A DNA stretch of 64,000 bases from Aplysia californica (taxonomy: Eukaryota), in NCBI RefSeq assembly GCF_000002075.1, contig NW_004797271.1, forward strand, positions 2,817,757 through 2,881,756, given 5' to 3'. The position numbers were made by a program, and so were the translations under genes. Every line of letters begins with the position of its first letter. The first letter of the stretch is position 1. Shown one piece after another: positions 41,001-62,300 of the stretch. The notes beneath the pieces were generated by a model that ran no database searches, was not told where the DNA came from, and saw nothing but the letters and a program-made list of their open reading frames with translations.

Positions 41001-44000
41001 ATGCTCAACCAGCTCAAAGATAAATGCTCTTGATGTAGAATGTCTCTCCATTGGCAAAGGTACTGTCGCTTTTTCAAACAAAGCAAAAAATCTAGGAGTT
41101 TACTTAGACAAAGACTTGTCCATGGAGACCCAACTTAACCATCTATTTAAAATTTCATACTTAGAAATGAGAAGAATTGCACACATAAGGAAATTTCTTA
41201 TCACTGATGCCACCAAAAAACTAGTGTTTGCCTTCATTTTGTCACGCATTGATTATTGCAATTCACTGTTCGCTGGCCTACCTGAAGAAAAAATTGCATA
41301 ACTCCAAGGCATTCAAAACAATGCTGCCAGACTAGTATTAAAGCAATCAAAACGCCATCATGTGACTCCCCTACTTAAAGAGCTACATTGGCTTCCACTG
41401 AAAGCAAAAATTGAATATAAGTTAGCCCTACTATGCTTCAAAGGTCAAACTAACCAGTCTCCCACATACATTCAAGAACTCATTGTACCATACACACCAT
41501 CACGTGAACTAAGATCCAGTGGCTCTAGACTAATTTCAACACCTCGTGTGTCACTGAAGAAATATGGTGAGAGAGCTTGTTCTTTTTCTGGGCCAACAGT
41601 TTGGAACACTCTCCCTCATGATTTGAGAAGTGAAATAAAACTTTATACCTTCGAAAGGGGACTCAAAACACATCTACTTAAGAAGTATTTTAATTAATGG
41701 ACAGTACCTTTGCCTTTTTGTATGAGCATTTTTTATTGTCTGAAAGAATGTTGCTGTCAAAAAGTGCGCACATGATGAATTTGTATGGTGTTAGTATGAA
41801 TGCGTTTTTAATCTCCTATGTACGCCTTGGGCCCATGTTGTGGGGAAAGGCGGGATACAAATGCTCTTATTATTATTATTAATCTATAATGACTCTACGA
41901 AATGTCCAGGTGTCTAAGACAACTAATTGTTCAGTCTCTATATCCATAAAAAATAGAAAGAGCCATTGATATATTTGGAGTAAATTTATTTTCTTTGAAT
42001 TTTGTAATAATAAATAGTCTTTGTCTAGTGCATACCCCTCCTTGACAGCAAGCTCTATGCACTTTAAACTATATTATTACCCCAAGGGACCATTTAATAC
42101 TCAGAATCGTTCTCGGCTTCCCGGGAATCATACAGAGCAAGCAGCCGATTAATGGCTCAAACGCTAACAGACTGATAAGGGGGGGGTTGGTTTGTTGGCA
42201 CCAACAACTCGCCATTCACCAGAGCCGTGTCAGTGAAAACAGGGATCACCACGGGCAGGTACGGTTGGCTGGATTGGGAGAAGCTGTTTGAGACGCTGAG
42301 GCATTTCTCAATATTTAAATGAGACCCATCACCAGTCCTTGATCCCTGTGGTTGAGGGGGAAAAATGCCCATTTTTCAATACAACATGACTATTATTGTG
42401 TTGATGTGCTTAGTTTTACTCAAAGAAACAAACAAAATCGTTAAGCATGCATCTCTGCTTGCGGGTAGTTGGCTCCTTCTTTCCTATCAAACATCTATTG
42501 TCCCGATCTCTCCTCCTTTTTATTTGTTTGTTACTCTCTTGTAACACCTAATCTTCAGCGCTTCTGTGACTTTATTGTGCTGCAAGTGCCGTAAAATTCT
42601 TACTAAAACTAAAACGTCTTTTCGTCTGTTCCCTCAGACATCTATGGCCTGCTGCTGTTCCTGGGCATGGACCCTCTGCTGGTTCAACAGTGGTTTAAAC
42701 TGCTGGTCTGGGAACCTTTCTGCCACGGCTTCTCCGCACCCATGCACCATGCCCTGTCCCAGGTGCTTTGGCGCACGGCCAAGAAGGATGTTATTGATCA
42801 GGTGACAGAGTCTGTGTGAAATATGAGGCACCGTGGTGAAATTAGGTGCTCGTCGAAATGATGAAATCGAAGAAACAGGCATTTTTCCATCACTTTGGCA
42901 ATTTTTATCGAATTTTAGTTTTCTGACTCATTTCTATTTGAATTTTACTTAAAAACGTTGATTAAAGGCACCAAATATGTAATTTTTTCAGTTTTCGAGT
43001 ACTTTCAAAGTTACCAAACTTTGGTAGGCATTTTTTCACTAATTTTGCTACTGAAACCAGGCAACCTCCTACCTCCTTCAATCGCAAATGTCTCAACTTC
43101 TTTTCAAGATAGATGTGTAATTTTTTCTCATTGAAAGCGAGGCAAATGAACAAGCTTTCAGATGATACCAATAAATCCACATGCCCAGAAAAATGACGAG
43201 CGCCTGATTCCACTGTGTCGTGAACCATATTGTTTTGTTCCGTACGTCTTTGGGAGCGTAGAGGATACCACTTTGTTGTTCTATTTATTTATTCTACCTC
43301 TTGGCAGTATTAATATTAGGTGTGAGAGAAGCCTTTAGTAGAATAAAGGTAGGTTTTTCTTTTTAGGCAGCCTTCTTTTATTTTTAGAAATTGGTTTTAT
43401 TGTGGTAGAGCTTTCAGCTCTCTCTCTCAGGCTAATGTGTATGACATTGTGAAATATTCTGCAAAAAAGATATTGGATTATGGAGCAATATGTATTCTGT
43501 GTTGTTCCCCGTATGTCGTAGAAAATATTTGGTAAAGTGGTCAATGTGTGAATGAAATGTAATGTTTTTAATGTGTAAAATGAATTGCTTTGTGGTTTTG
43601 TGTTGTCATCATGACCTTACTTTTAACACATGACCTTGAGGGGATGTTTTTTGGTATTGGCAGATTGACCTACCAGCCCAGTCTGAGGAAGTGAACTGGC
43701 TGACCTTTTCCCCAGTGGAGGAGCATTTCTACAGAAGGCAGTATGAGATCTATGAGCGGAATGCTTACATTGTGAGTTGTTAGTGTACGTTTTACGGCAC
43801 TTGCAACTCAGTTTGGTCAAATAAGTGTCCGTAATTAGAGGTGTTTACATACAAAGTCAAGAAAAAGAAGAGATAATGATGACAGATGTTACACATAATG
43901 AGTTTTGTGGCTCTTTGGAAGTGAGGCTTGTGCACACGGTTTATAATATTTAGACAGTGCAAGTTTTAAATTGTTTTTTTTTTTAAATGTTGAAAAGCAA

Positions 44001-53300: not shown

Positions 53301-56300
53301 AGCCAGAGGCAGCTACCAAGATCCTTAATGTTATTGAAGAAAGAGAGGTCAGCATCATAGGTTTTAGATCTTCCTTTTTCCCAACTTTTTACAGTTGTTA
53401 TTTAATCTGTAACTATAAACCTTAAATGAATGCACTGTTGAAAAGATATTTTCTTAAATAAGAATTAGTATGGAATTTACAACAGAGAATGGATAATATC
53501 AAGAACAGGAATGTTGAAAGTCATAATCTGTGCAGTAAACTTTCATAGTGACTTTTAGGAAGGAATAAGGTTTGTAACAGTCGCACAAAGCAAATAAAAG
53601 ATATGTTGGGACAATGTGTCTTCATGGTTTTTGGAATGCTAAAGATAGAATTGTTTGTCTCCAGATGACACAACATGAACTGAAGTGCTCCTCTGATGAA
53701 ATTGTCAGCCGAGATGAACTAAGGAAAAAACTCGGGCAGCTTGTCTACCTCACAAATTTGGCCTCTCAGGTACATTTTTTCTTTGTCTAATTCTCTGCTG
53801 TGTGTGTGTTGGGGGGGGGGGGGGACAATACTTCCCTATCTTAACATCATGTTGATGCTGTAATGTTACATGTTATAGTAAGATGAAACAGTCTTTTCTT
53901 TGTTGGTTCAGAAGTTGTATCAAATCTACAACTGTCAATGGAAAGCAAGTAGGCCTACCTTTTTGTTGCTTCGCTCTGGTGGTCTCTTTTCCCCCCCAGC
54001 CCCAATTGTCCAGTGTCATGTTGCTGAGTTTCTTTATTTTTGTGATGAGCTAGGAACAGACTCCTTTTTTCCCCGGACATGTTGATTTGGAAATTGCTTG
54101 TAATTGTGTTTTTCTTTATTTTCCATAGAATGAGGCAGGCAAAGACCACAACATTGACGGTTGCCCTATTTGCCAGTGTGAGCTGGGTCTGGAGGTAAGT
54201 GCTCTGAGAGACAAGTATTTTGTGTACATTAGATGAGCTGGGTTACAGTGACATGAAATATCATGTATAAGATACCTAAATTTCAGTACAAGCTATTTAT
54301 CAATACAAAGTATTCAGCCATTGTCAGGGGTGCGAAAGTAAAATAATTTTGTATATNNNNNNNNNNNNNNNNNNNNNNNNNNNNNNNNNNNNNNNNNNNN
54401 NNNNNNNNNNNNNNNNNNNNNNNNNNNNNNNNNNNNNNNNNNNNNNNNNNNNNNNNNNNNNNNNNNNNNNNNNNNNNNNNNNNNNNNNNNNNNNNNNNNN
54501 NNNNNNNNNNNNNNNNNNNNNNNNNNNNNNNNNNNNNNNAATTTTTCTTTGTGTAGATCAACAATGAAATGTCGCTTATCTTACCTTATTTCAAGGAATG
54601 GCCTAGATGTTTGACTTGGATAGCAAACAGCATGATTATTAGAAAGAAATTGGATGTGTTAAGAGTACCTATCAAAGCCCATCAAATTCTAAACACGTAT
54701 AATGTTTTGTCAGTTGTTTCTGTATTAACCGATGTTCCTCTCACATTTACCCCCCAGTGGAGTGTACTCATGTGCGGTCACTGTTACTGCCTCCGCTGCA
54801 TCCGGGCTCTGATTGACCGCAACTTGATTGGTGGCAACATCCAGGACAAGCGACTCAAGTGTCCGGTGTGCCGCAGCTGGACACCTGTGCGGGAGATCTC
54901 GTACGTCACTACCAAAAAGACAGAGAAAGTCAATGTGAAGGTGAGATGATGTTCCCGCTGAGGGCTGGGAGCTTTTCTTTTTTTTTCAGAATATAGGAAT
55001 AGATTCTCTTTATCGAGAATGGTCTGTACCTGTGTGAAATTTTGGGTGGCCTATTATTATTATCTCACAACAAACAAAACTATGATGATGGTGACTTGTA
55101 TTTGAATTCCTGCAAGAATGCTTGTACACACAGACTTCTTTAATGGTACTTTTTTAACCTTCTCAGACTGTACTTCTGACATTCTTTCCCTATTTTGATT
55201 TTCTGATCTTACCATGTCTTGCACCTGCTTTACTTGTCATTTTGCCATAGCATAAAAAGTGCAGGTCTTCTGAAGTCGGTTTGCAGAGAAGTGCAGAAGT
55301 GCAAACAGTGTCTGATATGTGGTTTTGATTTGAGTCTGTTACTTTTATCACATCGTGTCATGGCGTGAAATAAATCTCTCTATTACTACAATTTGCTCAC
55401 CTCAGGATCACCTCTCTTGCCTGGATTGTTTTGTTCCTTTTTCCAGTATCCTCTTCTGGACCATGACTGTCAGTCCTGAACTTGGCTATTTCTACTCTAA
55501 GGGCTATATTAGTTAGTTATGCAGTCTGCCAGTCTCTAGTTCTGGTTTTGATTGCAGTATGTTTAAGAATGTGGTCCTGGGCTATGTTTTTGGATTACAC
55601 ATTTTGTATTCCTGCTAGCTCTCCTGTCATAGAGTTTCGTTGTAAATCTGAATTGAATCGCAGATTATTTGTTCATTTCTCCTCTTTGTTTTACACAGGG
55701 GAGCCACTCGACAAAAGTGCAAGCGGTTATTGAGTGTCTCATAAAGATCAAGGATGCCACCCCAAATGCTAAGTCCTTGGTGTTCTCTGCGGTAAGAATG
55801 CCTGGGAGTACATAAGATATGCTGTGATAAATGTCTCCATAACATGATGGAATCAGGGGCTGGTCAATTTTTGGGGCATTTGAAGTTATTGGTATAATCT
55901 TAAACTAGTTCATTTCTCTTGCTTTTGATGAAAACAAAATGCCCATCTTACCTGAATAGAAATTGAGATATTTGCAATTGAGGGTGGTGGGGGTTGCCTG
56001 GTAGAATTAGCAAAAAAATAACTGCCAAAGTTAGCTCACTTCCAAAACTTGAGAGTCTATCGAAACTGCAAATACGTTTTTTTTTGTACCTTTGATTAAT
56101 GTTTTTCTGTAAAATCCATGCAGAAATCTGTTTTTAAACGGACGTACGAGGTGTTGAAACCCAAAGAAAGTTATATTAAAATTGTCCAACAGGCGGAAAA
56201 ATGTTCGTTTCTTTCATTTCACTATTTTGACGAGCACATGATTTCACAACAATGCTACCATACATACTTTATGTTTCTCCATTGTTTGATTGAAATTTTT

Positions 56301-59300
56301 TTTGTCTCCCAGATATTAATTTGTAACGCTGATTTCTAAAAGGGTCTTTTCATTTTGTCTGACCGAACGATTCTCATCAAGTTGGCACGGATATAGTCAC
56401 ACATTAAATGTGTCACTTCATGATAATTGATTTTACATTTTATACTCTCTGAAAAATTTTTCAGTCAACATGTCATGAGTTAGCAGGTGTAGCATGATTG
56501 TTAGTATTATACAGTCTGCCTTTGACTTTCTTCGGTTGATTTACATGAAGCTGTTTAACATGAAATACTTGTTCTGGTGAAAAGATTTCAAATACTTGTT
56601 TAAAAAAAATGTCTCTCAGTATTCTATACATTGCAGCTTCTCTTATTATAGAATCTGCTTAAAACGAAGAAATTTTCTGGTCTCATTAGGTTCATGTTGT
56701 CAGGGTTTTATTGCAGTTTCTTTTCATGTGACAGGTAAACAGTGTTTTGAAAAGGAATGAATGGTTTCATGCCGAAAGCTTTTTCATTCATTCCCAATTT
56801 TATAATAGCGGGTTCTGCTAACGCATTTCTTGACTCCACTCTTTGTGTTCCCAGTGGGTAAGTGTTCTGGACATCCTGGCTGCCGCTCTGGCTGAGAACA
56901 ACATCATGTACAAGTCCCTCCACGATCCCAACTCTTTTCAGGTCTGTTTTCTCATAAGACAAAATTTGTTTGCGGTCAACCCAATAACGTGTTTATAAGC
57001 TGCATTTGCTATCTAAAGTATAATGTTGTTTCCATAAAAATTGTTCACTCTCTGACGAAAATTGCAATGACTTTTATGTTGTTGAGCTGGTATGGTATGA
57101 TTACTGTAAGCAGTCAATTAAGGCCTTCCGCGGGTCTAGGAGGGGGGCGAAAAATCGTCCAAATCATGAAAATATCGATATTGGAGCTATTATCATTTCT
57201 GACAGGAAAATAATCCCTCTAACGATTCCACTAGGTCTTAAATTGGAAAAATGGCTAGAAAGTGCCAAAAAAATGCTTTTGAGGAGGTGGGGGTCTGACC
57301 AAAGTTGCTTCAAAAAATGCAAAACGGGTTGAAAACCTCCATAGCAACTGGCTTTTCCACGCTTCCAAACCCCACAATCCGCATATCGACACAATCGGCA
57401 TTTCAAGGCCCGATCGAATGTTTTATCGATACTAGGCTACGAATTACCCAGCCCGAGTAATAAGCTCCCGAAATGAACATGTATTCTTTATTTTCATTGG
57501 CTGGTTTGGGGGCGTCGGCTAAATGCGCATCGGTGATTGGTCGAGGCGTCGGTAATCGTAGCAACTTCAATCCCATAACACCCCGCGAGGACGCGAGGCG
57601 GCGAATTTGATCGGCCATTTTTGTCTGTACTGGAGATGCTCATTCAACTGCGGTCAGCAAAACAACGTTCTCAAAGCTATTTTTTTATATCAAGACGTGA
57701 CAACATCTTTTCAGGTGAGTAAATATATGAGTCTATCCATACATTATATGATTTATTGATCAATTCTTGAATTTTGTTGAGAATTTCTTCCCACAAGTTG
57801 ATGATTATCGACAACAAAGATAATCAGAGAATGGCTTTTGTTTACATGTGGTCTTTGCTCTACCTCGCGGAATATCGAAGTCCTAATGTCAAAATACCAC
57901 TTCTGATAATGATATATGCCAATGTAGATCTTAATTTTATCTGTCTAATACCTAGTTTCCCCATTTGTGTTTCTCCTATTGCCTCAGTTTGTCCACTTCT
58001 TGTCTTGTCTCCCAGACTCGATCTTCTCTCTGCCTTTCAATTCAACAATTGTGAGTTGAGCACTTCATGTGAGTGTGTTATCGTATTTATGCATTGTTGA
58101 GTCTTGTGTGCGCTTTGCACGTAGACTAGATTAGATCTAGATCTAGAATTCCAATTAGAGATTATACTGTGGGCTTTATTATTTCTCCATGAAATAAGGT
58201 GATGTTTGTGCTGTAGTTCGGAAGAGTGGAAATTACTATAGTATAAAAATTTAGTGGTGGGCAGGTTAGATTCTCCATCCATAGTAGATCTAGATCTAGA
58301 ATCTAAATTCAGAGTGATTTCTTACTGAGAGACCACCCAAGCATTGTGATGTTAGGTATTGTATGCAATGACTATCTTGGAATATGTATCAAGATAGGGA
58401 ATTGGCATAAAGCGTTGCGGGAAGAATTCCATAACGAGCTACCACTATGAAACAGTGTAGAAGTGATGGTTAGGGGTTGGGGTACGGGTAGGGTTAGGGG
58501 TTGGGTAAGGGTTAGGTCTCTCCTGTATTGTATTTGTTGGGGTAGTCGCGCGTTATGGAAGTTGCTGAGCAACTGTATGTTGATTTTGATATTATTATAC
58601 TTACGAAGATGTATTTTCTATTTCCTTCTCAGCCCATTGTCCGCTATGCCTGCCACAAAGTCTCATTCAAGAAGTGAGAGCAAACGTGGTCGAACTTCTA
58701 AAAGCCGAAAGGAGGCTTTGAAAAAGGCACGAGCAGCAAGACAGATTGAGAAAGTTCAAGATGAGTCGAGTGCTGAGTTTCAAGTTGCGCCACCAGCTGT
58801 GTCAACATCTGGGTCTCCGCCACCTTCGTCTTCGTCTTCGTCCTCATCAGTACCTGAAGCAGCCCCGTCTCTTCCTGTACCAAGCACTCCACTCTCTGCG
58901 TCATCACGCAAGCTGGCCTATAACGCTGAAAGACACAGTGCTTCTTCTGAGTTTCTGGGCTCCACTGTTGTTGAGCTGGCAACGCTGAGACCCTTGTTTG
59001 AGAATTTACTCTGCCCCCAGTGCACGACAGCTTCGTTGAAACTGACCTGTGATTCGAAGAAGACATCCGGACTAGCAGTATTCCTGGAGATTTACTGCAC
59101 AACCTGTGAGCAAGCCGTCGCTATGAACTACACCTCCGGTAAGACTGACAAAGTGTTCACTGTGAATCGCCGTGTCATTGTGTCCTCGTTGGTGAATGGA
59201 AGTGGTTATGCTGGCCTGGCAAAGTTTTGTGAAGCCATGGATATGCCTACTGTCCACCACAAGACTTACCTAAATCACCAGAAGAAAATTCATCAGCAGT

Positions 59301-62300
59301 CAGTGGCCAGCTCAGATAAAATTCTTTTGGATACTCGTGATGCTATCGCTAGAGCATATCCGGAGCAGGAAGGAAATGGTGTCCTGGACATTGACGTTTC
59401 CTATGATGGCAGTTGGCACACTCGGGGACACACTTCGAATTCAGGAGTCGGCTGCGTCATAGAAAACCGAACTGGCCTCGTCGTTGATTTTCAAGTGTTG
59501 AGCAAACACTGCCACAAGTGTAAGGCGGTCGGGGCACACCTGGAAGGGGAGGCGTATGAGCGATTTTGGGCTGCTCACAAGGATGAGTGTGACCGCAATC
59601 ACACTGGCTCGTCCGGCAGTATGGAGCAGAAAGCGGCTGTCATGTTGTGGCAGAGGTCAGAAGAGAGGGGCTTCCGTTACCGGAGTGTGGTCTGCGATGG
59701 AGATACCAACACGATCAAGCAGATCAATGAAGTCAAGCCATATGCCGACGTCACAGTTGAAAAGAAAGAGTGCGTGAACCACGTCGCCAAGCGCCTTGGA
59801 ACGGCTCTTCGAAAGCTTGTAGAGGACAAGAAAAAGGTGAAGGTTACCCTTGGGGGGCATGGAAAGGGCAAGCTGACTCAGGCCAAGATTGGGAAGCTCC
59901 AGAAGTATTACATCAGAGCTGTTCGTTCACACAGCACTGTGGCTGAGATGAAGACGGCAATCTGGGCTTCATTTTACCATTGCTCATCGACAAACACCAA
60001 GCCACGTCACGACGATTGCCCTAAAGGTACACAATCCTGGTGTTTTTTCCAGAAGGCAAGGGCCAAGGGGTTGCCGCACCCTGACCATGACAAGCACATG
60101 TCGACGTTTATTAGTGAGTTTGTTGCGGAGCACATGATTCCTGTCTACACCCGCCTGACTGATGACGAGCTGTTGTCCAGATGCACAGGTGGAAATACTC
60201 AGAACGCCAATGAAAGTGTTCACTCTGTCATCTGGGCGCGGTGTCCCAAGCATGTTTTCGTTGGCCGACAGAGGTTGGAAATTGCAGTGGGACTTGGAGT
60301 GGGTGAGTTCAACCAAGGCGCTCGGGCAACACACTACTTTCTCCAAGAACTTGGACTCACCATTGGCGTCAATACCAGAAAGTGTGGTGGCCAGAGAGAC
60401 TCTATTCGGAAACGGAAGGCAGAAAAGGCTAACGAAAGTGTTGCGAAGAGAAGGAGGGACATCAGGAGAACAGCGCAACTTCGGGAGGAACAGCGGCTTA
60501 TTGAAGCAGAAGGTGGAGAGCAGTACTCTGCTGGCGGTTTCTAAATTGGATTATGTTTTCAACAGTGAGTACCAAAATGCATGTAGTGTGAAGTCATTTT
60601 ATGTTGCTTGTTGTTGTTTTTTTTGTTAATCTAACAGTGAATGGATGTACTCTACTAATTTGCATGATTGGAGTATCAAATTTTCCTGTGATGTTCAATT
60701 TTTTGCATTTTTGTACTTTTTCCTCGTTTTCTCAGCTCGTGCTTTTTCTTGGGGGGTGGGTTTACAAAGAAGGCCATTTCACAGAAACCAGTTGTCAGAT
60801 TGTCTTGCAATTTGGCACACACTTTCACAAGTGCCATGGCTATGCTCTGATAACAGGATTTGATAGTTACTTAATTTTTGTATGAGTTACATTGCTGTTT
60901 TTGGGGGGAAAAATTTGAAAAAGGTGTGAATGCTGAAACGACTAGCAGAGCACTTACTTCGACCACCACTGTCAGAAAAATAATGAATCTACAGTAAAAC
61001 CCTGTTATACATACATGCCACAGGGTATTATCCATGCACACATGCAGTTTTGTGAAGTTTCAACAAAGGATAGTGGAGATATTATCTTCTTTGTTATGTA
61101 ATGATTTTGATACCCGAGACCCCTAAATGATCCAGTAAAGAGTCAAAAAGAAAACAACTGTGGTAAAACTGTACCAAAATGTCAAAATTAACCCCTTGTT
61201 AACCTTCTATGATGCCTCAAATCCTTTAAATGCAGGTAATTAATCAAATCACTCTCAATGTAGCTTCCCCCCTTAACTTGTTCTGTTTGTTGTGTGCCAA
61301 GTTTTGTATATATAATTTATATGAAATTGTTTATCATCATTGTCCCTCCTCCCCCCCCCCCCCCCAAAAAAAAAGAAATATCTTTGTTTAATATTGCATT
61401 ACATGAGTTGAAGTGAAAGGAATGTATTAATATCTTTTGTTGTTTTTTTAAAATGTAGGCTATATCTCCAACTAAAGTGTTTTATTTATAATGATTTACA
61501 GAAGAATCTGTCGGCCTTCAAGTCTGAGGATGCGGTGCAGGTGTTGCTGCTTCCCCTGCACAGCGGTGCCAACGGGCTCAACCTGGTGGAGGCCTCCAAC
61601 GTGCTGCTGGTGGAGCCCGGCCTCAGCCTGGAGGAGGAGGCGCAGGCCATCTCACGGGTCTACAGGATTGGTCAGACCAGGTGTGCTGGTGTTTCTCTTT
61701 GTTGCCTCTCTGTTCACTTGTTATCTTGTCTACCCCCCCGGGGCGGTGCCACTGACTGAAGTGTCTTTAGGCCATTCCCAAAGGGGGGACATTTCTCATT
61801 CTAATGCATAGATGTAGAATTGTAAATGGGCTGATCCAACAATGTCATGCTCATAACTCTGCCTGAACTACAACAGGGAACTGTTGCTTTTTCTTTCCTA
61901 ATCCTTACTATCATCATTTTCCTCTACTTCTTTTGTATGTTTGTCACATTCTTGTGACCCGCTCTTTCCGGGGTGCCTTGATAGTCGAAGCAGACTTTTG
62001 TGCTGTTGAAGCTAGAGAGGTGAGCAGAGTAGATCTGATTCTCTGTAAGGATTTCTCTGTTGACATCCACCCCTTGGCGCTCATATGACCTTATGCAGTT
62101 GCGAGCACCGTAAAACCTCTACTAAAACTAACTAAACTCTTGTCTGGTCTGTTCCTCGCTGCGTTTGTGAGTGTCGGTCAAAGTGTCATGCAGTGGGTGG
62201 TTGGCAGGTACTCTGGTGTGGTTTGCTCCTTCTTTACCATCAAACGTCTGTCGTCCTTATCTCTTCTTTTTTTGTATGTTTGTGACTCTCCTGTAATACC

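Follow-up and report, generated by a model that had tools for sequence, protein, structure and literature searches.

A low-copy Kolobok transposon with dissimilar ends in an intron of the Aplysia californica SHPRH gene

RESULTS

An intact single-gene transposon lies within SHPRH

The window analysed here is a stretch of 64,000 nucleotides of the A. californica genome (contig NW_004797271.1). Its forward strand carries SHPRH, recognized by Pfam matches in five of 49 reading frames (SHPRH_helical-1st, E 3.9e-18; SHPRH_helical-2nd; SNF2; Helicase_C). An intron of this gene contains a 4,151-bp element, flanked by two TTAA sites, whose transposase gene reads in the same direction as SHPRH, as the original prediction had stated (Table 1). 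Contigs were available from DNA runs of two other individuals (X1 and X7) and from a run bearing a second organism label (X17, organism B). For the upstream SHPRH exon, the X17 depth of 3.69 equals 85 bp at a contig depth of 8.73; for the downstream exon, X17 contig 16 covers positions 61499-61681 and continues elsewhere on both sides.

Table 1. Features of the element and its surroundings (positions in the window)
Feature	Position	Strand	Basis
Upstream coding exon of SHPRH (5' limit approximate)	56857..56941	+	Open frame ending CAG/GT
Left target-site TTAA	57118..57121	+	Window sequence; X17 contig 9 alignment begins exactly at 57118
Kolobok transposon, GG..CC ends	57122..61272	+	Uniqueness of TTAAGG and CCTTAA; depth vs flanks
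Left end: GG, seven variable nt, CGGG at 10-13, two GAAAA..TCG boxes (28-36, 47-56)	57122..57177	+	Clade comparison
CpG-rich putative promoter and predicted non-coding first exon	57422..57714	+	CpG o/e 1.39; ATTGG motifs
Predicted 5'-UTR intron with high-copy repeats nested in it	57715..58632	+	GTGAGT donor; polypyrimidine-CAG acceptor
Nested high-copy repeat: hairpin arms, GGTTAGG-like tandem units	58410..58570	.	Internal copy, arms, depth
Transposase, 632 aa	58646..60544	+	Pfam; 28-sequence alignment; structure model
Right end: GG followed by a G-rich run and CTAC at 10-13; fits lineage-wide terminal consensus	61253..61272	-	Profile
Right target-site TTAA	61273..61276	+	Window sequence; leftover letters of flank contigs; probable joint
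Downstream SHPRH exon encoding Helicase_C	61502..61681	+	PF00271, E 3.4e-5

The transposase ORF is uninterrupted and matches PF20700 (E 2.8e-65), the only Pfam family to pass the cut-off in the element's protein; the intact single ORF of the original prediction was thus recovered. A longer reading of 692 aa from the ATG at 58466 was rejected, as it begins inside the nested repeat and the N-termini of homologues align with the methionine at 58646. Invariant among 28 aligned sequences were the catalytic residues D254, D351 and E523, a C4 finger (C123/C126/C151/C154), a CCHC finger (C289/C292/H311/C315), C376xxH379 and a further finger (H455/C458/C466). The window copy has isoleucine at position 423, where three sequencing runs give threonine. 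The predicted structure (pLDDT 84) has an RNase H-type transposase fold. A sequence search of the PDB found no relative of the transposase and none of the SHPRH exon. Apart from the transposase no second ORF was found: both remaining ATG frames of at least 100 aa overlap it.

The features predicted upstream of the ORF fared less well. The promoter motifs proved weak, consisting of two reverse CCAAT boxes (ATTGG at 57496 and 57536, among nine ATTGG in the element) in a CpG-rich stretch. A spliced 5'-UTR had also been proposed; splice signals exist, but splicing was not seen, the joint between the donor at 57715 and the CAG ending at 58632 being absent among the joints listed and the X17 contigs running unspliced across both sites. 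Were the SHPRH donor at 56941 to splice to 58633, the SHPRH reading frame would terminate 14 codons later. CpGs are retained in the element as a whole (o/e 0.69, vs 0.40 for positions 30001-57000 of the gene body), but not in its last 728 bp (0.21). The nested repeat reaches a depth of 38,000, has arms at 58427-58445 and 58542-58560, and has a 67% copy at 19197-19368; it is also found in other copies of the family, X1 contig 2 running from 58432 into the ORF. In one poly(A) library the depth over the transposase ORF was 0-0.2, the flanking SHPRH exons being uncovered there too.

The insertion site is most likely empty in two other individuals

A flank contig from X1 (contig 1, 999 nt, depth 56) aligns with the window up to position 57117 and continues with 100 letters from outside the element; one from X7 (contig 17, 1,342 nt, depth 36) stops at the same position and continues with 104. 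The distance from 61273 to the end of a poly-C/poly-A tract is 102 bases, and the leftover letters match those bases. Both contigs part from the window immediately ahead of the left TTAA, which makes an empty site most likely in the two individuals; the empty-site joint itself, like the right ends of other copies, lies outside the joints and loose ends listed. Empty, the intron would measure 405 bp. The empty allele sought after the original prediction is thus apparently present in two of two other individuals.

Contigs of the element stood at 3.7x and 3.4x the flank depth; their divergence from the window was 0.2% and 0.5%, below the 1.5% and 0.9% of the flank alleles. The family is thus low-copy, at about 3.5x the flank depth, with several copies per genome, and the description of the insertion as young is supported. 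The polymorphism indicates recent mobility of the element, not present mobility. The depth in the bin 61225-61425 was above that predicted for a clean stop at 61272. X17 contig 9 enters the element at its left TTAA after 87 foreign letters, i.e. from another flank, and presumably represents a separate insertion with the same left end. The idea that the element reached organism B by horizontal transfer was rejected (divergence of 1.2% in the element and 2 of 183 in the SHPRH exon).

The two ends of the element do not mirror each other

Upstream of the transposase ORF there is a single TTAAGG within 3.5 kb, and downstream a single CCTTAA within 3 kb; from the contigs, we infer that the right end of the element lies at 61272. 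The TTAA flanks and GG..CC ends claimed originally are present at these sites. The two ends agree at four of 15 positions, and beyond the GG at two of 13, which is the level of chance (P = 0.89 for at least two). A comparison of 56950-57300 with 61050-61480 found no inverted repeat of nine or more exact bases, nor was a 9-bp direct repeat detected at the element's ends, which therefore show neither normal terminal inverted repeats (TIRs) nor a 9-bp target-site duplication (TSD). No second copy of either end occurs within the window at up to three mismatches. Alternative TIR pairs at other TTAA sites were rejected, the best of 221 pairs (9/15) being A/T-rich and without GG ends. Subterminal direct repeats between the left and right 330 bp were also rejected (z 3.3; 2/100 shuffles; one of 40 tests, with a similar result in the relative L011).

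A TTAA target and an unequal left and right subterminal layout are also features of piggyBac, which has CC..GG-type ends with true TIRs. Among the matches listed, none linked the transposase to piggyBac by sequence or fold.

Relatives keep the signals found at each end

From 28 loci with both motifs, 19 families of relatives were retained after dropping duplicates (L004, L048, L052, L071, L072 and L077), one locus with a truncated right end (L034) and two with unsupported ends (L026 and L064). Good TIRs, with at least 12/15 matches, persist in fifteen of the 19 families, and one other reaches 6/15; the Aplysia element is the extreme of TIR loss among them. In 8 of 12 families listed, copies part between TTAA and GG or between CC and TTAA, and in two more this holds with one copy at a variant tetramer. 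Five sequences from loci of the lineage were tested; among them, four full transposases match PF20700 and are bounded by TTAA and GG..CC ends. The snail relatives, which include Physella and Biomphalaria families, are 99%-identical genes on several contigs. No relative was found in viral contigs; those in prokaryote genomes were five short contigs in metagenome-assembled genomes, likely host contamination, and were excluded from the end analysis.

The right end ranks within the top 23 of 5,274 sites starting with GG when scored with a profile of the right ends of the 19 relatives, and its positions 3-9 rank in the top 1.8%. The left subterminal box aligns with that of L002 (z 5.2, the best of 12 comparisons). 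CGG at positions 10-12 of the left end was found in six of seven clade-mates (6/9 if L026 and L024, whose ends are uncertain, are counted) and in none of the 12 other families. The motif at positions 10-13 was noticed after the fact and in related, non-independent families; the clade holding them has no more than 92/91 support. Within this clade, matches between the ends at positions 3-9 range from 7/7 to 1/7. Taken literally, the statement that the element has essentially no TIRs is right, but both ends match signals that relatives retain.

The element belongs to the Kolobok superfamily

Mutator elements generate variable TSDs of about 9 bp and have long TIRs, and neither was found here. Judged by its sequence, the element belongs to the Kolobok superfamily, not to Mutator; the original prediction had likewise spoken against Mutator. 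The superfamily is defined by TSD, termini and transposase (papers on Kolobok, including the available parts of PMC9587614). The element has a TTAA on both sides, 5'-RR..YY-3' termini (GG at 57122 and, at the probable right end, CC at 61271-61272) and a DDD/E transposase carrying C/DxxH and, between the second D and E, a zinc finger. By eye, its motifs match those of Kolobok-3_Aplcal, -3_DeSi, -1_LHu, -24_HMa and -1_AdSt in the alignment of PMC9587614 (Data S5; the curated sequences stand outside our tree), with about 25 of 45 residues around the first D identical to Kolobok-3_Aplcal. With the single-transposase lineage of Data S5 it shares TTAA, RR..YY ends, D-D-E with C/DxxH, the CCHC finger described after the first D and a second finger before the E. 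It differs from these Repbase families as a distinct family with no TIR beyond GG, although their own ends may be equally asymmetric; such ends may also appear in the figures of PMC9587614 or elsewhere in Repbase.

The absence of KolX, the second ORF of Kolobok0, is real, no separate ORF of at least 100 aa being present. It is not the anomaly that it had been taken for, since Kolobok lineages encoding only a transposase appear in the available parts of PMC9587614, and most relatives found here have a single ORF. The 450/660-bp terminal direct repeats and His-Me nuclease of KolobokP were not found, nor, in Pfam and ORF scans, the DEDDh exonuclease, lambda-exonuclease or RecQ domain of KolobokD/E/H; KolobokP shares with the element the superfamily, occurrence in molluscs, a length of about 4 kb and the CCHC finger, and asymmetric use of its ends is mentioned in those parts of PMC9587614. 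Xenopus XKol/Kol0 (PMC6004289) shares TTAA, purine-purine ends, imperfect TIRs (about 11/16 matches, our count from its Table 5) and recent amplification; it differs in its AG ends, THAP-type transposase, length (6.8-13.9 kb), KolX in the Kol0 group and recognizable inverted ends. Short TIRs, usual in Kolobok if variable in quality, are the feature that the element lacks, and it was therefore filed as a variant within the known superfamily.

DISCUSSION

We consider, at roughly three chances in four, that the locus holds a low-copy, single-gene Kolobok, likely a recent insertion into TTAA, whose ends are likely read as two different signals at fixed positions. The sequence, the contigs and the relatives all bear out a single-ORF, TTAA-specific transposon with asymmetric ends. 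Since the ends do not mirror each other, the transposase likely reads left and right by different short signals. In the mechanism that we propose, a transposase dimer or higher oligomer would recognize the box at positions 10-13 (CGGG on the left, CTAC on the right) plus the A-rich subterminal boxes, cut at the GG adjoining TTAA and integrate into TTAA, moving by cut-and-paste as assumed for the superfamily. Positions 3-9 would serve as a spacer whose length is fixed but whose sequence is free, so that symmetry could drift away without loss of mobility. Against this, the profile shows these positions not to be free at the right end, and the 15 of 19 relatives that keep them symmetric suggest some constraint there. 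Drawn from sequence comparison, this recognition-and-spacer scheme has about an even chance of being right.

Two alternatives are equally doubtful. In the first, a Kolobok sub-clade would have dropped its TIRs, and the non-equivalent ends GG-N7-CGG and GG-N7-CTA would act as donor and recipient in IS256-like copy-out, paste-in: one end, bound tightly and nicked, would attack beside the other, and the resulting circle of abutted ends would be integrated precisely at TTAA by the single enzyme, with no need for matching ends. By analogy this is conceivable, as the IS256-family transposase of ISCth4 (PDB 6XGW, 6XGX and 6XG8), which shows donor/recipient asymmetry and bipartite end binding, is the closest structure to the transposase model (Foldseek E 1.3e-4; Z 12.2, rmsd 5.4, 266 aligned). 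The available part of PMC7780238 describes the recipient end's weak binding and the integration of junctions with one short TIR, and that of PMC9587614 likens KolobokP excision footprints to IS3/IS256. However, ISCth4 is bacterial, about 11% identical and has TIRs, and Hermes, a cut-and-paste enzyme, is nearly tied with it (Z 11.1, rmsd 4.2, 247 aligned), and a fold in common does not reveal the pathway; moreover, the copy number is low and no circle junction occurs among the joints listed. If true, the family would illustrate that a live DDE transposon in an animal can do without end symmetry.

In the second, the asymmetry would be accidental, the left end having been captured in one founder from a sibling Kolobok family, or having eroded, and the element still moving, at low efficiency, through a permissive transposase. 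Scored with the relatives' left- and right-end profiles, the right end fits both (top 0.2% and 0.4%) while the left end fits poorly (top 3.9% over positions 3-20), and relative to L002 and L028 the left subterminal box is displaced inward by about 29 bp. Against this, L002, L025 and L028, distant in the tree, have the same pairing of left CGG with right CTA, and in organism B the left end aligns from the TTAA. Two other possibilities are very improbable: a Mutator/MULE element with ends or a 9-bp duplication elsewhere, despite the PF20700 name 'Mutator-like transposase' and the IS256-family fold, as the lineage's transposases lie between TTAA and GG..CC ends and the motifs match curated Kolobok families; and a domesticated single-copy gene, despite a 90% protein cluster of one member, given the depth, the apparently empty site and the multicopy relatives.

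We found no paper on end recognition by a Kolobok transposase or on a Kolobok activity assay, and no literature link between PF20700 and Kolobok; 'Kolobok-Hydra' receives only passing mention in the literature listed, and Dada was set aside as a TIR-less precedent, the paper checked having no passage on TIRs. This work also shows that, in this lineage, the proteins which Pfam labels 'Mutator-like' (PF20700) are transposases of Kolobok type. The family is young and intact with ends that differ nearly everywhere, and its relatives range from perfect to no TIRs; together they form a natural series suited to mapping the bases that a DDE transposase needs. The family also offers a direct test of cut-and-paste versus copy-out in a eukaryote and, more speculatively, the element could add a TTAA-specific vector for molluscs.

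The element and its coding content

The 4,151-bp element appears to be a genuine and young insertion from a single-ORF Kolobok lineage that is already known; in a graded series of terminal inverted repeat (TIR) loss it occupies the far end. Its host gene, SHPRH, was recognized by matches of five of the 49 candidate frames to SHPRH helical, SNF2 or Helicase_C models, on the same strand as the element, in agreement with the sense orientation originally predicted. The SHPRH intron (56942-61501) would measure 405 bp without the element. The predicted uninterrupted transposase was also found. A 692-aa reading from an upstream ATG was rejected; its start lies inside a nested repeat, and the homologues begin at the second methionine. 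With 51-52% identity, proteins of the freshwater snails Physella and Biomphalaria are the best homologues, making a gastropod the probable host; one homologue, P0006, carries the name 'NADP-cytochrome b5 reductase' in its source. CpGs were expected to be retained within a CpG-depleted gene body, and this held for the element overall (observed/expected 0.69; gene body upstream, 0.40), with its last 728 bp as an exception (0.21).

Main features of the element (window positions)
Feature	Position	Ends	Basis
Kolobok element, 4,151 bp	57122-61272	5' GG, 3' CC	sequence
Flanking TTAA, left and right	57118-57121 and 61273-61276		sequence
Transposase ORF, uninterrupted, 632 aa	58646-60544		Pfam PF20700, E 2.8e-65

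Asymmetric ends with putative fixed signals

The TTAA-flanked ends have the same base at 4 of 15 positions, and at 2 of 13 (chance level) beyond the GG, bearing out the claim that inverted repeats are essentially lacking. Neither an inverted repeat of nine exact bases nor the 9-bp duplication named as a refutation was present at these ends. Both ends were available for 19 relative families, left from 28 loci after removal of six duplicates, one truncated and two unsupported. Matches among the terminal 15 bases numbered at least 12 in 15 families, 11 in two, eight in L016 and six in L002. In L002 the ends are 22 and 14 bases away from the ends of the contig, like those of the TIR-bearing L011; loss of end symmetry thus recurs. 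Both L002 (23-3939) and L016 (126-3830) have long open transposase frames, and the right box of L016 is apparently shifted by 2 bp.

Counting inward from each terminal GG, with the right end read as reverse complement, the right end carries CTAC at positions 10-13; when 5,274 GG-start sites were scored with a profile built from the relatives' right ends, it placed within the first 23. The left end carries CGG at 10-12, as do six of seven clade-mates (clade support 92/91) and none of 12 other families (background 0.4%). The corresponding Fisher p of 0.0003 was calculated after the fact on related families, and the count becomes six of nine with two uncertain ends. The left-CGG/right-CTA pairing is common to L002, L025 and L028. 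According to PMC6004289, Xenopus Kolobok TIRs are imperfect, matching at ∼11 of 16 positions by our count. Literature searches, Repbase not covered, returned no publication on a TIR-less Kolobok.

Superfamily placement

Kolobok is defined by TTAA duplications and RR..YY ends in PMC9587614 (Kojima and Bao), and the transposase residues described there were all invariant in a 28-sequence alignment. The closest curated rows by eye, in the part of its Data S5 available, were Kolobok-3_Aplcal, -3_DeSi, -1_LHu, -24_HMa and -1_AdSt. The analysis drew on the 80 top-ranking of 172 metagenome relatives. Copies parted at TTAA|GG or CC|TTAA in eight of the 12 multi-copy families displayed; a further two showed the same pattern, one copy of each having a variant tetramer, and the remaining two were uninformative. 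Because of these joints, and because all four relative transposases tested match PF20700, sequence comparison indicates that the 'Mutator-like' PF20700 lineage is Kolobok. In many relatives the 3-4 kb contain one long ORF; a single ORF is thus normal, and the lack of the second ORF (KolX) is not the anomaly first supposed. Mutator identity is ruled out by the TTAA target duplication, although the lineage is labelled 'Mutator-like' throughout. Domestication as a single conserved copy, the other refutation named, is unlikely, given a multicopy, apparently polymorphic family and snail relatives that are found as 99%-identical genes on several contigs.

Several relatives showed further peculiarities. 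Among the copies in L034/L037 and L036/L042, one end may have ATAA or TTAG in place of TTAA, and a single copy is cut short in its right TIR. A 256-aa ORF upstream of the L021 transposase (L021:255-1022), with no Pfam match above cut-off, may be an accessory gene or a split N-terminus. L081-L085, found in two bacterial MAGs on short contigs, are Kolobok transposases of the animal type and probably reflect contamination from the host.

Insertion age, copy number and expression

Four of 24 listed sequencing runs were compared with 56200-62200, with joints placed at the leftmost fit and depth taken as a rough measure of copy number. X1 and X7, two different samples, each gave a single left-flank contig aligning up to 57117, the base preceding TTAA, with a leftover of 100 and 104 letters, respectively, that did not enter the element; 61273 lies 102 nt from the contig breakpoint at the end of a poly-C/poly-A tract. 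Given the leftmost-fit joints, the simplest reading is that both individuals carry an empty site with one TTAA. Divergence from the window was 0.2% and 0.5% for element contigs, and 1.5% and 0.9% for flank alleles, in keeping with the young insertion proposed. The depth of the element contigs, 3.7 and 3.4 times that of the flank, suggests roughly 2-4 family copies per haploid set; a second, more diverged subfamily (∼91%) was also found. A contig from X17, a run labelled as a second organism, is 99% identical and begins to align precisely at 57118, preceded by 87 foreign letters; this suggests a second insertion sharing the left end. The right end probably lies at 61272, because of the TTAA, the leftover length, the only CCTTAA within 3 kb and the fit to the relatives' ends; depth in the bin holding it exceeds the prediction for a clean stop.

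Neither X21, a poly(A) run with depth 0-0.2 across the ORF and none on the two SHPRH exons, nor X17, where SHPRH contigs were spliced and element contigs unspliced, showed transposase expression. The proposed spliced 5'-UTR was not confirmed, and both the leader and the promoter of the element are purely predicted. The few X21 reads at 60600-61000 fall on the element's 3' region only (seven at 60793, carrying the family variant), and X17 coverage ends at 60905. A transcript may end in this region; no AATAAA is present.

Other repeats in the window

A high-copy repeat (depth to 38,000) occupies 19197-19368 and 58410-58570, the latter nested in the element's predicted intron. It has hairpin arms and GGTTAGG-like units in tandem, and resembles non-autonomous Helentron/DINE elements. 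Another nested family is represented by two repeats that contain TAGATCTAGATCTAG at a spacing of 153 bp (58132-58156 and 58285-58309; depth ∼4,700 at 58306). SINE-like repeat(s) at 61734-62131 are extremely abundant, with depth adding up to millions, poly-A loose ends at 62116-62131 and a large number of poly(A) RNA reads. Four copies of a 430-bp repeat are 68-73% alike (8133-8571, 14183-14629, 42821-43213 and 55845-56250); the second has 36-nt terminal inverted arms at 94%, and the repeat is MITE-like. Young direct and inverted copies, 80-95% alike, cluster at 17817-22744, adjoining assembly gaps.

Proposed end recognition and possible consequences for SHPRH

The transposase model (pLDDT 84) matched ISCth4, a bacterial IS256-family transposase (Z 12.2, rmsd 5.4, 266 aligned), and Hermes (Z 11.1, rmsd 4.2, 247 aligned), as well as P element transposase in Foldseek. 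In the most likely mechanism, to which we give a probability of about 50%, the transposase would cut at the GG beside TTAA, each end would be gripped through a box lying one helical turn inward together with A-rich subterminal boxes, and bases 3-9 would be left as spacer. Against a spacer, bases 3-9 are symmetric in 15 of the 19 relatives. A bolder proposal is that the element may use a donor/recipient pathway like that of ISCth4, whose recipient end is weakly bound (PMC7780238); in PMC9587614, KolobokP excision footprints are likened to those of IS3/IS256. The fold cannot decide on such a pathway. As a third option, the left end might be chimeric or eroded. For the host gene, splicing of the SHPRH donor to the element's predicted acceptor at 58632 would lead to a stop after 14 codons.
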